Of a stretch of DNA of 49,763 nt, positions 15,627 to 49,763 are shown one piece after another. Under the pieces are notes generated by a model, which saw only the letters and a list, made by a program, of their open reading frames with translations, did not search any database and was not told where the DNA came from. The translations under genes and the position numbers were made by a program. Source of the stretch: a virus; IMG/VR virus record IMGVR_UViG_3300045988_172460. One strand, 5' to 3'. Positions within the stretch are counted from its first letter, which is position 1, and each line of letters opens with the position of its first letter.

Positions 15627-15836
15627 CTATTCGACTAATAAGCGAATGCCTTCGGTTACTTGATTAATCGACTCTAACTCATTAAGATCCAGTAATTTTC
15701 GTAGGCTCATATGATAGCGTGTCGCAATTTCACTAGCAGTTTCTCCTTCAGAAACAGTATGAGTCGTTTTTTGCGTAGTTTTTGACAACTCTTTTTTGTT
15801 TTCTTCTTTACTAGAAGCTTTTTTCTCTTTAGCCAT
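15627..15836 (-). CDS. Small LysM-domain protein
   Basis: ATG at 15836 with GAAGGAGGTG upstream. HTVSEGETASEIATRYHMSLRKLLDLN fits LysM. Confidence 0.6.
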   Translation of the reverse strand: MAKEKKASSKEENKKELSKTTQKTTHTVSEGETASEIATRYHMSLRKLLDLNELESINQVTEGIRLLVE

Positions 15837-28115: not shown

Positions 28116-29060
28116 CTAGGAAAGTTGCATCAATGCACCAAGAATCTTTTCATCATCCTTACTCTGTAATTCATCAATGATATGCATATATGTTTCTTGA
28201 GTAGTAGTCACGCTTGAATGTCCTAGACGTTTAGCTATGCTATGAGTTGACACCCCGTCAGCGAGTAAAATACTTGCATGTGTATGTCTAAGTCCGTGCA
28301 TTGTGATGACAGTGATTCCTGATTCTTTGCATTTTCTGATCAGGTGGGAATTGTATGTTGAATTGAAAATTCGTTTATATTTGCCTGTCTTTTCATCTCG
28401 ATTTACAAAAATCAATTCATCTTGAGGTAAATTTTCAATGAGCGGTTTAAACTGACCAACTATTTGCCAATCGATGCTTATCGTTCTAACAGAACTTTTG
28501 TTTTTCGTATCCTGAAAAAACATTGTAGAATTTTTGTAGTTCAATGTTTTATTAATGCTGACGGTATTTCTGGTCCAATCAAAATCAGCTGGTGTTAACG
28601 CAATGGCTTCCGCAAAGCGCATTCCTGTTTTTGCAACCAGTAAAATGAACCAATCCATATTTATCCCTTCGCCAAGTTCTAGTGATCTCAACAGCTTTTG
28701 TAGTTCGCCTTTTTGCAGGAATTTTTTCTTTTTTGGTCTCGGCGGTATTCCTTTGATAATCGCTTTGTAGGTTGGATCACGTTTAATTAGTCCTTCGTGA
28801 TACATATCTCTTACACAGCTGCCAATTTGGTGATGAAAATCCATTGTTGTCTGCCGCTCATGTGTCAGAGCGTATTCATTAAGGATGCTTTGATAAGCCT
28901 TTCTATCTAATTTATCTATCGTTAAATCAGGGCAAATTTCAGTAAGGTGTTTGTGGGCTATATAATATTTACTAACTGAGATATCTCTAATTGCACCGAC
29001 TTTGTAAGTTTCAATCCATTCTAAAAAATAGCCAGCAAAAAGTCTGGGACGTTTGCTCAT
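28116..29060 (-). CDS. Second tyrosine recombinase (XerC/D / phage-integrase family) within the early region
   Basis: 314 aa. Catalytic residues R (TGMRFAEA), HxxR (HGLRHTHAS), H..Y (LGHSSVTTTQETYMH). ATGA overlap with the upstream gene. Confidence 0.85.
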   Translation of the reverse strand: MSKRPRLFAGYFLEWIETYKVGAIRDISVSKYYIAHKHLTEICPDLTIDKLDRKAYQSILNEYALTHERQTTMDFHHQIGSCVRDMYHEGLIKRDPTYKAIIKGIPPRPKKKKFLQKGELQKLLRSLELGEGINMDWFILLVAKTGMRFAEAIALTPADFDWTRNTVSINKTLNYKNSTMFFQDTKNKSSVRTISIDWQIVGQFKPLIENLPQDELIFVNRDEKTGKYKRIFNSTYNSHLIRKCKESGITVITMHGLRHTHASILLADGVSTHSIAKRLGHSSVTTTQETYMHIIDELQSKDDEKILGALMQLS

Positions 29061-29749
29061 TCGTTTTCTCCTCCTAACACGCTGGGACTTTCGATGTGAT
29101 CAATAGCTTCTTCCAGCCATTCTCTGACTTGAAACTCTCTTGTGACCACATCGCTGTGCGGCATAACATTTACATCGCTAAAAGCCAACGAATCATCTTT
29201 TGAATTTTGTAAAAAGTAAATCTGTTTTATTTTTCTGTCTAGCGAATCACCGTGGACTACGGTGGCATTCATCCCACGAATAGCAAGATTGAACAGCAGG
29301 AACGGAATGGTTCTATCAGATAACTCCTCTAAATCGTAAAAAGTCATTGATGGTTTATATTCAAAAAAACCAATAGATAGTCTGTCTGCTCGCCATTTTT
29401 GTATGATCATTCCACCTGTCCCAGAAGCTACTTCATGTGTCAACCCACTTCCAGGCCCTACGATTTTTGCAATCACTTCCCCAATTGAATTTGGCGTAAA
29501 ATCTTGCTTCTTAACTTTCCGATCAGCATGTTCGTCTTGAAAATATTCGTGAAACCAATCGAAAGTTAAATCTTTTTCTATTTCTAAAAATTTGTTAAAC
29601 ACGATTTCTCGTTTATCGCGACTTAGTAATATATTCATGAGCGCTTCTGGCGCTTTGTAGGCATCATCAACACCTAGCAATTCATTTATTTTTTCTGTTG
29701 TTAGTTTCATCGTTTTTAAAGGAGCAAAAAGCTTTTTATGCGGCCGCAA
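29057..29749 (-). CDS. N6-adenine-methyltransferase-like protein, short and lacking a canonical NPPF/Y catalytic motif
   Basis: DFTPNSIGEVIAKIV and EVASGTGGM (SAM motif I), NLAIRGMNATVVHGDSL. At the expected motif IV position only FSDVNVMPHSD is found. Start is TTG at 29749 (with AAGGAG SD) or ATG at 29710. Confidence 0.6.
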   Translation of the reverse strand: MRPHKKLFAPLKTMKLTTEKINELLGVDDAYKAPEALMNILLSRDKREIVFNKFLEIEKDLTFDWFHEYFQDEHADRKVKKQDFTPNSIGEVIAKIVGPGSGLTHEVASGTGGMIIQKWRADRLSIGFFEYKPSMTFYDLEELSDRTIPFLLFNLAIRGMNATVVHGDSLDRKIKQIYFLQNSKDDSLAFSDVNVMPHSDVVTREFQVREWLEEAIDHIESPSVLGGENE

Positions 29750-29761
29750 ACTCCACTCCTT
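29718..29761 (-). repeat. Composite palindromic leader element, copy A (5' of the N6-MTase-like gene)
   Basis: Plus strand: AAAGGAG - cAAAAAGCTTTTTat - GCGGCCGC - AAACTCCACTCCTT. Shares its architecture and a 22-nt block (20/22) with copy B. Confidence 0.8.
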
Positions 29762-29766
29762 TCTAT

Positions 29767-30507
29767 TTATTTTTTCTCTAGAACCTTTTTAAATATGTCA
29801 TCCACTAATTTTTCTGGAATATTTGATCGTTCATTATAGCTTTTGGAAAAATTCCCCCAAGCAATTTCTTGTTTAATAACTTTATTTTTCAATCCCAAAT
29901 GGATATTACTAGCAAATTTCGTGGGCTTCTGTAATGGATAATCATAATTGTTATACCTGGTTAAATTTTTAAATGGCAGTTTAAAATTCAAGACATCTTC
30001 GATATATTCCCAAATTTTGCCACTAGCGGGGTTCTCAATGATGAAATATTTTGGTTGGTACTTTTTTATAATTTTTATAGTATTAAAAACCGTTAACTCT
30101 CCATTCACTCTTTTTAAAAATTGCCTTTCATAAACATAATTAGTATCTTCGTAATCTATTGTGGTTCTTATAGTAAACGGGCTTGGTAATATCTGTGGTG
30201 CAAATAAATTATCTGTTACATCTTCTCTTTTCCAACAAGCATTACCATTTTTCATTGCACTAGCTACTGACCAGCTTTCACATGGTGGGCTTGCAATGAT
30301 TAAATCTGGCTTTGGTAATTTGTCTAAAACTTTGAATAATTTATTATCATTAAACATATAAGAATAGTCCGCTAAATTCAGATGAATAAAATGGTCATTC
30401 TTATTTTCAATATCCAAACCTATGCTGTATATTTCTATATCTTCAAACTTTTGTGCAGAACGCTTATAACATCCGTTCCCACTATCAAATAGTGCCCATA
30501 CTATCAT
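29767..30507 (-). CDS. Small C5-cytosine-methyltransferase-like protein
   Basis: 246 aa. Motif I-like LFDSGNG, motif IV SPPCESWS (Pro-Cys), motif VI IIENPASG. Very short target-recognition region. Confidence 0.6.
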   Translation of the reverse strand: MIVWALFDSGNGCYKRSAQKFEDIEIYSIGLDIENKNDHFIHLNLADYSYMFNDNKLFKVLDKLPKPDLIIASPPCESWSVASAMKNGNACWKREDVTDNLFAPQILPSPFTIRTTIDYEDTNYVYERQFLKRVNGELTVFNTIKIIKKYQPKYFIIENPASGKIWEYIEDVLNFKLPFKNLTRYNNYDYPLQKPTKFASNIHLGLKNKVIKQEIAWGNFSKSYNERSNIPEKLVDDIFKKVLEKK

Positions 30508-30513
30508 AATTTC

Positions 30514-30558
30514 AAAGGAGTAAAGAATTCTTTACTGTGGCCACAAACTCCACTCCTT
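30514..30558 (-). repeat. Composite palindromic leader element, copy B (5' of the C5-MTase-like gene)
   Basis: Plus strand: AAAGGAG - TAAAGAATTCTTTAC t - GTGGCCAC - AAACTCCACTCCTT. The 16-nt perfect palindrome is at 30520..30535. Confidence 0.8.
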
Positions 30559-30565
30559 CCGCTTT

Positions 30566-30793
30566 CTAATTAATTAACACATAGAACCCTTGTGATATAG
30601 ATACTTTACCGAAAATATCAAGTTTTATTTCAATTTCGTTAAGCGTCATGCTCGTTTTATGAGATAGTTGGTCACCTAGTCCTAGATTCCTTAGCATCAC
30701 GTATTCTTCTTTTGTAAGTTCATCAATATCAACTGATTCAATTTTTTTATCGATACCGTTTTTTGATATTAATTTCACATTTTTGAATTTCAT
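30566..30793 (-). CDS. Hypothetical protein
   Basis: 75 aa with a GAAAGGAA SD. Confidence 0.55.
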   Translation of the reverse strand: MKFKNVKLISKNGIDKKIESVDIDELTKEEYVMLRNLGLGDQLSHKTSMTLNEIEIKLDIFGKVSISQGFYVLIN

Positions 30794-41996: not shown

Positions 41997-42278
41997 ATGA
42001 TGACACCATATGAATTGAGAGAAAGATTGAAAAGAGATGTTCCAGAAGTAACAATTTATCCAATATTAACAAACCCATATTATAGTGAAGAAGAATATCA
42101 AGATGTGCTGAAGGATCAATTAAAACCAAAAAAAGACATTGAAACTGATAATATGGTCACACTCCCCTTATTTTCATGGAAAGAAAAAGAATTAAAAATG
42201 GATAAGTTCTATGAAAAAGGCTGGTATAAACCTAAACTTTATACCCTTCCAAAATCTATGTTCAGGAGTGAAGATTAA
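41997..42278 (+). CDS. Hypothetical protein, translationally coupled to the integrase
   Basis: ATG at 41997 after GAAAGGA. 93 aa. TAATG overlap with the int start. Confidence 0.55.
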   Translation: MMTPYELRERLKRDVPEVTIYPILTNPYYSEEEYQDVLKDQLKPKKDIETDNMVTLPLFSWKEKELKMDKFYEKGWYKPKLYTLPKSMFRSED

Positions 42279-43504
42279 TGGCTTCTATAAAATCTTATAA
42301 ATTGAAAAATGGTCAAGAACGTTGGGAATACTTCGTTTCAAATGGACGTAGCAATGGTACTGGCAGGCAACAAAAAATACACAAGAGAGGTTTTAGAAGT
42401 CATAAGGAAGCTTTGAAAGCTGCAAAAATAATTGAAGGGCAAATTGCATCTGAAGAATTCGTTAAAGAAAATCCACAAAAAATGACTATTTCAAAATTTA
42501 TGAATATTTGGATAAACGAATACAAAAATAACGTTAAGGAAGGATCACGAATTGTCTATCGAGATGCTATCCGTATGTATATTGATCCCTATATAGGTAA
42601 TTATCAATTAAATAAATATAAACCTGCGGATCACCAAAAGTTTATTAATAGCTTGTTTACGAATAAAGAACTAGGAAAAAGTAAAAATGGGCTTAGTTAC
42701 AATACAGTAAAAATTGTAAATGCAGCTCTTTCCAATGCATTCAAAAAGGCGCAAAAATTAGGGTATATAAAAAGCAATCCTACCTACTTCGTTGAATTTC
42801 CTTTAGATAAGGTTAAGGAAAAAACAAATAAAGAAAAGAAACTAGAATTCTACACTTTAGAGCAGGAAAATCTATTTCTTGACACTGCTAGAAATTTTGA
42901 CGATTTTATGTGGTATGTATTTTTTTTAATCATTTTCGACTTAGGCTTGCGGAAAGGCGAAGTAATGGCCTTACGATGGTTTAACTTTGATTTTAGAGAT
43001 AATATTCTCACATTTGACAAGCAGCGTTTGTATAGAAAAGAGCAACCTGGTCAAGTAATTTTAGATGATGTTAAAACTGATGCTGGGAAGAGAAGTTTAA
43101 AAATGACAAACAGAGTGAGAAACTCCGTCTTAGAACTCTATAGTATTAATTATGATCTTACAAGTAATGTATTACCCATGACTAACTCAAACCAAGATTT
43201 TTTATTTATCAATCATAGAGGAAAAAACGTTGGCTTGCCTATTCGTCAACGATCCGTTGACACAGCTTGGCACCGTATCATTCAAAAAGCAAACTTACCA
43301 AAAATCAGAATTCATGACGGTCGCCATACTAATGCTGCTCGTTTACGACAAGCAGGAGTTCCACTTGAGGACATTAAAGACATGCTTGGTCATAAGAATG
43401 TTAAAACGACTGAGATATATGCACATGTCTCTCCTGAAGTGAAAGAACGAGCTGTAAATAAACTTGAATTATATCAAATGCAACACAAAAAATCAGGTAA
43501 CTAA
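42278..43504 (+). CDS. int: Tyrosine integrase
   Basis: 408 aa. R (LRKGEVMALRW), HxxR (IHDGRHTNAARL), H..Y (LGHKNVKTTEIYAHV). Followed by attP-like repeats. Confidence 0.9.
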   Translation: MASIKSYKLKNGQERWEYFVSNGRSNGTGRQQKIHKRGFRSHKEALKAAKIIEGQIASEEFVKENPQKMTISKFMNIWINEYKNNVKEGSRIVYRDAIRMYIDPYIGNYQLNKYKPADHQKFINSLFTNKELGKSKNGLSYNTVKIVNAALSNAFKKAQKLGYIKSNPTYFVEFPLDKVKEKTNKEKKLEFYTLEQENLFLDTARNFDDFMWYVFFLIIFDLGLRKGEVMALRWFNFDFRDNILTFDKQRLYRKEQPGQVILDDVKTDAGKRSLKMTNRVRNSVLELYSINYDLTSNVLPMTNSNQDFLFINHRGKNVGLPIRQRSVDTAWHRIIQKANLPKIRIHDGRHTNAARLRQAGVPLEDIKDMLGHKNVKTTEIYAHVSPEVKERAVNKLELYQMQHKKSGN

Positions 43505-49175: not shown

Positions 49176-49763
49176 CTACAGCGGCAGTTTATAATCATTT
49201 TCTGGTATAAAGACTCCTCCCAAAGTTCCTCCGACATTACCATCAATATCAGCGAATCCTTCTTTACTAATCTCTATATCAGTCGTACTTGAAAATGAAA
49301 AAGTTCCCTCCAAATTAACGTAGGCTACTCTAATGCCTCCAGCACTGATACTCTCGACAATTTGTAAAAATTGACTAATACTTAGACCCGAACTATTCAA
49401 GTAGTCAAGAGGAGCTTTTTTTATGATTACACAAGCAGGTTCTTTTTCATCTACCGTCTCATTAGCTGATATAATATGGATATCACTAGGATGACAATTT
49501 AAAGATGTCGCAATTGCATGTAACATTTTGTCGATTGATCCATCGCTTGTATTTCTAGCTACCTTTCCACGAATCAATACTCTATATATTTCATCAGTCG
49601 TTTTTCCTCTCGCTTGTCCAACATTAGCACCTAATTCATCTAATCCTTTCCCTCGTGCTTCATCTATCGATCGCCAGTTTGCTACTTTGTTCAGCAAATC
49701 AGTCAAGTCTTTAATTTCAAACTCAATAATTTCAAGAAGTTTTGAAATATTTGAATTTTCGCG
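49176..49763 (-). CDS. XkdU/YmfQ-like tail-baseplate protein; its 5' end runs off the window and continues at 183..142
   Basis: The ORF is open to the window end. Joined across the circle junction it encodes about 209 aa, starting at the GTG at 183..181. Confidence 0.7.
   Translation of the reverse strand, partial: RENSNISKLLEIIEFEIKDLTDLLNKVANWRSIDEARGKGLDELGANVGQARGKTTDEIYRVLIRGKVARNTSDGSIDKMLHAIATSLNCHPSDIHIISANETVDEKEPACVIIKKAPLDYLNSSGLSISQFLQIVESISAGGIRVAYVNLEGTFSFSSTTDIEISKEGFADIDGNVGGTLGGVFIPENDYKLPL
49623..49763. repeat. Terminal direct repeat, copy 2 (identical to 1..141)
   Basis: Exact 141-nt identity with the window start. Confidence 0.97.

Follow-up and report, generated by a model that had tools for sequence, protein, structure and literature searches.

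Introduction

Orphan methyltransferases (MTases) are a main means by which phages escape host restriction, and their overexpression is costly. In phage Mu, the DNA-modification gene mom is silenced by mRNA structure that blocks access to its translation start, and its control involves the Com activator and Dam-dependent transcription. Leaders that sequester the Shine–Dalgarno (SD) sequence are also found in translational riboswitches, such as the SAM-III (SMK) box of Enterococcus metK, as well as in the fourU and ROSE thermometers, and the attC sites of integrons, which lie at the 3' end of a gene cassette, are imperfect inverted repeats (R''-L''...L'-R') that include extrahelical bases. Here, we analyze a palindromic element found in two copies, A and B, upstream of two MTase genes in the IMG/VR virus record IMGVR_UViG_3300045988_172460, whose complete stretch of 49,763 nucleotides (nt), hereafter the window, derives from a temperate Enterococcus faecalis phage akin to phiFL1-3.

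The ribosome-binding sites of the T4 genes 38 and 25 are split, with the SD located 22 and 27 nt from the AUG and an intervening hairpin that enhances initiation (PMC3014915). The promoter-early stem-loop (PeSL) motifs of T4-type phages are composite terminator/promoter elements and exchange points between unrelated sequences (PMC2839356, PMC4122927), and the expression of integron cassettes depends on short open reading frames (ORFs) and upstream translation (PMC8876359, PMC11511950). Copies A and B belong to a ~58-nt cis-acting mRNA leader family heading orphan MTase genes in temperate Enterococcus siphophages. We propose, with a probability of roughly 0.55, that the element is a portable mRNA leader which gates MTase translation, probably in coupling with the upstream gene, and which additionally provides the 5' swap point for MTase cassettes.

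Two Copies of the Leader in the Window

The initial annotation, made from the sequence alone, had described a composite palindromic element at 29718-29761 and 30514-30558, and reading both strands located the two copies at exactly these positions. On the plus strand, copy A (29718-29761) reads AAAGGAG-C-AAAAAGCTTTTT-AT-GCGGCCGC-AAACTCCACTCCTT and copy B (30514-30558) reads AAAGGAG-TAAAGAATTCTTTAC-T-GTGGCCAC-AAACTCCACTCCTT, both following a plan of AAAGGAG, an A/T-rich palindrome, a G/C-rich 8-mer palindrome, and AAACTCCACTCCTT. On the minus strand, which encodes all genes of the region, both copies are organized as the preceding stop codon, (A/G)GAAAGGAG-UGGAG-UUU-P1-P2-CUCCUUU, 6 or 7 nt, and AUG, where P1 and P2 denote the G/C-rich and the A/T-rich palindrome, respectively. 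The individual features are as follows:

30508..30565, minus strand: leader copy B, filling the gap from the TAG at 30566-30568 (gene of 75 amino acids, aa) to the ATG at 30507 of the C5-like MTase gene
30553..30558, minus strand: SD1 of copy B (AAGGAG), the 5' arm of the closing helix H0; pairing with CUCCUU predicted at ~0.97
30548..30552, minus strand: second SD-like pentamer of copy B, UGGAG, which can pair with the 3' half of P2 (minimum-free-energy fold)
30536..30545, minus strand: palindrome P1 of copy B (UGUGGCCACA); compensatory pair types CG/UA/AU/GC among alleles
30520..30535, minus strand: palindrome P2 of copy B (GUAAAGAAUUCUUUAC); G-C to A-U covariation at the fourth pair, RNA hairpin probability ~0
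30514..30520, minus strand: 3' arm CUCCUUU of copy B, resembling the 3' end of 16S rRNA; AUG 6 nt downstream
29711..29766, minus strand: leader copy A, filling the gap from the TAA at 29767-29769 (C5-like gene) to the ATG at 29710 of the N6_Mtase gene
29756..29764, minus strand: SD1 of copy A, AGAAAGGAG, a 9-nt anti-SD match; TTG 29749 lies 6 nt downstream
29739..29748, minus strand: palindrome P1 of copy A (UGCGGCCGCA), from sequence reading and allele comparison
29725..29738, minus strand: palindrome P2 of copy A (U-AAAAAGCUUUUU-G, closed by U.G), from sequence reading and allele comparison
29718..29724, minus strand: 3' arm CUCCUUU of copy A; AUG 7 nt downstream

Between the 22-mers of the two copies, the sole differences are at positions 2 and 7 of the 8-mer (C..G in GCGGCCGC vs T..A in GTGGCCAC), as had been noted, and since both changes fall at symmetric positions the palindrome is kept. 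The compensatory pattern first recognized in this single pair extends to at least 12 perfect alleles of P1 and about nine of P2. The element likewise ends where it had been annotated, 6 nt before ATG 30507 in copy B and 7 nt before ATG 29710 in copy A. However, the copies do not bracket a C5-MTase-like gene cassette, as initially proposed; each of them is instead the 5' leader of its own MTase gene. A covariance model derived from related copies scored copy B at 74.7 bits and copy A at 69.9 bits, with the next site in the window at 14 bits.

Distribution and Sequence Anatomy of the Leader Family

To collect copies, viral contigs, species genomes, and metagenomes were scanned by pattern, and 134 Enterococcaceae species genomes were searched with the model. 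This search of related phages and metagenomes, which the initial annotation had suggested as a check, retrieved 292 copies of the leader in 55 sequence variants from Enterococcus phages, prophages, and metagenomes; the model search found 27 copies in 16 of the 134 species genomes. The named carriers include phiFL1A/B/C, phiFL3A/B, EFC-1, VEsP-1, AE4_2, and EFP1, and the leader is also present in about a dozen further Enterococcus species and in Eremococcus coleocola. Copy B is found base for base in phage EFC-1, ahead of another methyltransferase of ~150-160 aa, and phage AE4_2 has a near-identical leader of the copy A type ahead of a PF01555 methyltransferase.

An MTase gene is located directly downstream in ~239 of the 257 copies having a start codon (~93%), and most of the exceptions are short ORFs overlapping a following methyltransferase gene. 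The MTases served fall into at least 10 sequence-unrelated groups and five Pfam families, with representatives confirmed for PF00145 (several unrelated lineages), PF02384 (two), PF01555 (two), PF02086, and a small Methyltransf_11/25-like enzyme; the remaining C5 groups were assigned by motifs alone. A divergent set of metagenome leaders (L195, L201, L210, L232, L235, L246, L266, and L269), with P1 TGACCGGTCA and P2 AAA(A)GCGC(T)TTT, is situated behind a methyltransferase gene where the upstream sequence is long enough to be read, and precedes a 171-212-aa protein with repeated CxxC pairs followed by a replisome-organiser-like gene. Hence, the leader is not strictly limited to methyltransferase starts.

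The order of parts is constant across the family, comprising an upstream stop, the very strong SD AGAAAGGAG, UGGAG(G), UUU, P1, P2, CUCCUUU, 5-7 nt, and AUG; the sole SD lies within the element, which a start codon always follows after 5-11 nt. Its nonpalindromic parts, GAAAGGAG(U/C)GGAG(N)UUU and (A/G)CUCCUUU, are nearly invariant. All P1 palindromes are G/C-rich, 10-12 nt long, and of the form U-G...C-A (once U-C...G-A), and all P2 palindromes are A/T-rich, span 10-16 nt, and have the form AAA....UUU. The MTase start codons are annotated inconsistently in the database records NC_025453.1 (EFC-1) and MT747435.1 (AE4_2), and the EFC-1 coding sequence is annotated 36 nt inside the ORF that opens right after the leader.

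An Rfam 15 scan of the leaders at E-values up to 10 assigned no family, the lone Fluoride match overlapping copy A reaching 15.4 bits against a gathering score of 34, and no description of the leader was found in the literature searched.

Pairing, Covariation, and Predicted Folding

Pairing statistics were obtained from a model-guided alignment of 57 distinct rows, which was fitted to a three-way-junction structure formed by H0, P1, and P2. In this fitted alignment, 96.6% of the three-way-junction pairs are standard, compared with 51-63% when the partners are slid by 1-3 columns. The covariation check over many copies, also suggested at the outset, yielded compensatory changes in both palindromes among these related sequences, the variable P1 pair being CG in 26 rows, UA in 14, AU in four, UG in two, and GC in one, and the variable P2 pair being AU in 36 and GC in 21. 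The helix H0 (AAAGGAG:CUCCUUU) is 98.7% paired, and its variation consists of A to G changes at three positions, each giving G.U. In the stem of P1, all five alleles with a single mismatch have G.U on the mRNA-sense strand (A.C on the opposite strand), and none has A.C. This strand asymmetry of the stem mismatches indicates that selection acts on the folded sense strand, either as RNA or as sense-strand DNA.

The ViennaRNA folding of 50 variants in their native context predicted the pairing of AAGGAG with CUCCUU at a mean probability of 0.95 (median 0.99), leaving the SD unpaired at 0.03 and the AUG at ~0.6, and gave the P1 hairpin a probability of 0.37. The preferred RNA fold is a long hairpin, with G.U pairs joining UGGAG(G) to the U-rich 3' half of P2. 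Conservation of this extension helix (UGGAG:YUUUR) matches that of P2 itself; it is 97.5% paired, with UA in 23 rows, UG in 17, and CG in 11 at one pair, and GU in 36 and GC in 21 at another. The 3' half of P2 is therefore, in the modeled folds, provided with two mutually exclusive conserved partners, a two-state layout. When DNA parameters are used, the three-way junction becomes the minimum-energy fold of both window copies, although a weak one (-5 to -6.5 kcal/mol; z of -1.5 and +0.3).

The initial annotation had offered a translational operator, or an SD bridged to the start by a hairpin as in T4 gene 38, as one of two readings. The operator itself is consistent with the sole SD being carried by the leader and with the predicted SD:CUCCUU helix. 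The analogy with gene 38, where a hairpin brings a free SD to a functional distance from the AUG, is incomplete: hairpin-capable palindromes lie between SD and AUG, the SD is itself predicted to be paired, and a P2 hairpin is not predicted.

A further feature of both palindromes concerns their centers. The central four bases of every perfect allele form a palindromic tetramer, with nine such tetramers represented (GGCC, TCGA, GCGC, CCGG, TGCA, AATT, AGCT, ACGT, and ATAT) and no nonpalindromic one, and the length changes from 10 to 12 nt are symmetric as well. Rare single center mismatches are of both kinds (three G.U and two A.C), unlike those of the stems. We read this as stems under sense-strand selection and a center that bears the mark of a DNA-level process making or correcting whole palindromes, such as strand-switch or fold-back templated synthesis. 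It is unusual for symmetry through the center to be combined with stems that tolerate wobble pairs on one strand only, and this pattern would separate RNA selection from a DNA-level generating process. The idea that the palindromes are unique "sentinel" restriction sites was discarded, as GGCC (36), AAGCTT (26), and GAATTC (12) are common across the window and not avoided, and so was the idea that they are the cognate target of the adjacent MTase, given the independent assortment of leader alleles and MTase families described below.

Translation Signals and Position Relative to the Upstream Gene

Almost every other gene of the window has an SD match of at least 5 nt at 5-10 nt from its start; the C5-like gene starting at 30507 has none, and the earlier remark that neither ATG has a nearby SD is borne out. 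In place of this, AGAAAGGAG in the leader is the joint-longest anti-SD match of the window, 9 nt, tied with that of the gene starting at 15836, and it is separated from the AUG by 44-49 nt. A conserved UUG follows the SD after 6-7 nt. The in-frame TTG 29749 gives copy A a 13-codon extension and the matching TTG gives copy B a 4-codon ORF; both of these leader ORFs had been pointed out in the initial annotation and are present, but they are not conserved over the copies. The leader ORF terminates in an AUGA spanning the MTase start in 80 of 259 copies, stops 24-30 nt before the AUG in ~95, copy B among them, and is in frame with the MTase in 22, including copy A; the others are out of frame and either stop near the AUG or run into the gene (~28 of them by more than 30 nt). 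One allele (TCCTGCAGGA) has no UUG: in this P1 allele (UCCUGCAGGA), a compensatory G-C to C-G swap turns UUUG into UUUC. Because the allele devoid of UUG keeps its P1 pairing, the UUG seems to be conserved as the base of P1 and not as a start codon. A conserved leader peptide was ruled out, since frames and stops vary and one allele has no UUG.

In 192 of 230 copies (83%), an upstream ORF (at least 45 codons) terminates 1-5 nt ahead of AAGGAG, and in 225 of 230 its stop codon is within 13 nt; this tight spacing holds over dozens of different upstream genes. As evidence of coupling to upstream translation, the spacing is suggestive only. No sigma-70-like promoter or terminator-like site was found at either leader; a promoter or terminator role was therefore dismissed, and the leaders are presumably internal to a polycistronic mRNA.

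Cassette Exchange at the Leader

As many as six MTase families and several leader alleles are found behind one and the same upstream gene end, and a given leader allele precedes many MTase families; upstream gene, leader allele, and MTase family thus assort almost independently. At the other side, unrelated MTase genes end in or just before a common 3' linker at the start of a YopX gene (...TTTTAGAAAGYGAGTGAAGAAGATGATTCC), where some loci retain a remnant of the 3' end of another MTase gene. This linker was seen, e.g., behind the methyltransferase genes beginning MKFLDL, MMNSYQ, and MQRETK. From these sequence comparisons, the YopX-side linker is the likely 3' swap point. Hybrid leaders also occur, one with a P1 (UGUGGCCGCA) that combines a B-type left half and an A-type right half joined at the P1 center, and another with an A-type P1 and a B-type P2, and many phages have tandem leader-MTase units. 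The overall pattern looks like homologous exchange at conserved linkers.

The second reading of the initial annotation had taken the copies as attC-like recombination sites served by the tyrosine recombinase encoded two genes downstream. Cassettes are indeed exchanged at the element, but this particular reading is unsupported. Among the 156 leaders followed by at least 2.5 kb of sequence, the recombinase is found behind 39, only together with the N6_Mtase family, and never behind other MTase families unless an N6_Mtase-family gene lies between, which rules it out as a general partner of the leader. Compared with the integron integrase model TIGR02249, it scores 48.8 bits against a cut-off of 265 and is a generic tyrosine recombinase; the window encodes a separate lysogeny integrase, and the palindromes are perfect. 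The recombinase-linked MTase family varies in length (217, 411, or 438 aa), and the two genes may represent a recombinase-associated, perhaps switchable, methyltransferase module.

Gene Neighborhood and Phage Context

The genes adjoining the two leaders are as follows:

29767..30507, minus strand: C5-like DNA methyltransferase gene, 246 aa, headed by copy B; PF00145 over residues 50-86 only; phrog_2882 DNA methyltransferase, E 6e-128
29057..29710, minus strand: N6_Mtase-family gene, 217 aa from ATG or 230 aa from TTG 29749, headed by copy A; PF02384; phrog_1071, E 7e-100
28116..29060, minus strand: extra tyrosine recombinase gene; PF00589; linked to the N6_Mtase family rather than to the leader

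The recombinase gene and the N6_Mtase gene overlap by 4 nt. The 246-aa C5-like MTase belongs to a large phage family (phrog_2882), yet seems to be devoid of a normal target-recognition region. The window also encodes the lysogeny integrase (42278-43504, plus strand), a CI-like repressor, and an ImmA-like protease. The identity of its bases 1-141 with 49623-49763 shows that the phage genome measures 49,622 bp and was assembled as a circle or with terminal redundancy. Where 24-45 CCGG sites would be expected there are two, GGATCC is absent against 4.7 expected, and GATC is found 116 times against 155-169 expected, a shortage that looks like restriction-site avoidance.

Proposed Role of the Leader and Alternative Explanations

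In the portable-leader reading, AAGGAG would pair with CUCCUU and UGGAG with the U-rich 3' half of P2, forming a long hairpin that masks the ribosome-binding sequence and holds MTase translation at a low level. The 5' half of P2 would be the alternative partner of its 3' half, and the leader could switch between this closed hairpin and an open three-way junction. A ribosome terminating 1-5 nt before AAGGAG would cover the 5' strand of H0 and have to melt the helix; from this position of the upstream stop, we infer that MTase translation is probably coupled to that of the preceding gene. The leader and the conserved 3'-side linker would also provide the homology for exchanging MTase cassettes between phages.

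Several points weigh against this proposal. The AUG lies 45 nt from the SD, a distance that the ribosome would have to bridge. The sequences are closely related and were aligned on the structure, which makes the covariation counts overstate independence. Within H0, there is no double compensatory change, only one-sided G.U changes; a lone copy (L293) has an A.C mismatch, and the conservation of this helix could come from SD function alone. The folding energies are unremarkable (z of -1.3 to -1.7 vs shuffles), and in the 50 variants the RNA hairpin of P2 has a probability of ~0, so that the palindromy of P2 needs either an alternative fold or a DNA-level cause. Both palindromes are symmetric through a center that cannot pair and in which an RNA hairpin needs no symmetry. 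Additionally, tight spacing to an upstream stop is common in phage genomes generally.

A more elaborate version of the proposal, which is possible though on balance unlikely, is a two-state RNA device whose switch is thrown by the terminating upstream ribosome, while a palindrome-templated process at the DNA level keeps the palindromes perfect, center included, and the hairpins self-renewing. Were it true, the leader would be a plug-in translational coupler, able to maintain itself, for anti-restriction genes exchanged horizontally. Rather doubtful is an explanation based on the leader ORF, in which the strong SD drives initiation at UUG and the MTase is produced by termination-reinitiation or as an N-terminal extension, with folding being secondary. 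AAGGAG followed after 6-7 nt by UUG is a canonical start, the SD of copy A is as long a match as any in the window, and both the AUGA overlaps and the in-frame copies agree with it; however, the frame and stop position vary with a leader length of 44-49 nt, the UCCUGCAGGA allele has no UUG, and the SD would be occupied if H0 forms. We attach a low probability to the element being a recombination linker only, similar to PeSL and with no regulatory role of its own. The independent assortment of upstream gene, leader allele, and MTase family, the conserved 3' linker, the hybrid leaders, and the tandem units would all follow from it, but a pure linker need not hold the sole SD, keep a fixed distance of 5-7 nt to the AUG, maintain stem pairing with G.U-only mismatches, or stay nearly invariant over 16 Enterococcaceae species genomes and Eremococcus.

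It is similarly improbable that the palindromes are duplex sites for a dimeric protein or a restriction/modification-type enzyme, with methylation-sensitive control or break-stimulated exchange as the outcome. Dyad symmetry through the center of every perfect allele, in nine palindromic tetramers, would fit such sites, as would the RNA prediction lacking a P2 hairpin and the three-way junction being the DNA-parameter minimum-energy fold. Nevertheless, freely varying sequences argue against a sequence-specific binder, and one leader allele precedes up to six MTase families, so the adjacent enzyme does not have its cognate sites here; the sites also abound elsewhere in the genome and are not avoided there, the leader has no promoter, the G.U-only stem mismatches are not expected from duplex recognition, and the DNA folds are weak. 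Very improbable, finally, are attC-like sites for site-specific recombination, recognized as a folded single strand by the tyrosine recombinase two genes downstream. The conserved inverted ends (AAAGGAG...CTCCTTT) around variable palindromes and the nearby recombinase are in line with it, and the strand-specific tolerance to mismatches also fits a folded sense DNA strand. Against these stand the confinement of the recombinase to the N6_Mtase family, its low score as an integron integrase, the lack of extrahelical bases in the palindromes, and the fixed position of the element 5' of the gene and relative to the start codon.

If the portable-leader reading is true, one leader for at least 10 unrelated MTase groups would explain how expression stays safe after each swap. 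The leader would also pinpoint exactly where swaps occur in a hypervariable counter-defence locus carried by phages of an important opportunistic pathogen, and annotators would gain from it a simple signature for MTase cassettes and for true, consistent starts.

Comparison with Known Systems

The leader resembles the T4 split sites in that an SD far from the AUG (44-49 nt here) is followed by intervening RNA structure within a phage polycistronic mRNA. It differs from them in the state of the SD, free in T4 and predicted to be paired with the CUCCUU beside the AUG in the leader, and in having two palindromes and being a portable element that serves many unrelated genes. With the PeSL motifs it shares the character of a short conserved stem-loop motif flanking variable genes, and it likewise lies at exchange points between unrelated sequences, whereas it has no promoter or terminator signal and is tied to a start codon and to one functional gene class. 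Integron arrays are similar in comprising promoterless tandem cassettes with folded palindromic separators and in the dependence of expression on upstream translation, a probable feature of the leader. Unlike in these arrays, no IntI is encoded with the cassettes here, the element is located 5' of the gene and carries an SD, the palindromes are perfect in place of imperfect repeats with extrahelical bases at the 3' end, and exchange appears to be homologous.

The regulation of mom in phage Mu provides the parallel of a phage DNA-modification gene held down by mRNA structure, which in the leader is a prediction; the partner protein of the Mu system has no evident counterpart for the leader. The leader also resembles the SD-sequestering leaders in layout. 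By prediction and comparison, the SD is paired with a complementary tract within the same leader and this pairing is conserved; an SD:anti-SD helix lies by the start codon, U-rich tracts cover GGAG through G.U pairs, and an alternative fold is possible. Distinct from riboswitches, including those for SAM or SAH, no ligand pocket is evident, with a junction length that varies from 0 to 2 nt and hairpins that are free to vary, and the polarity is the reverse of that in SD-sequestering leaders, the SD being located 5' and its complement occupying the place where the SD normally sits.

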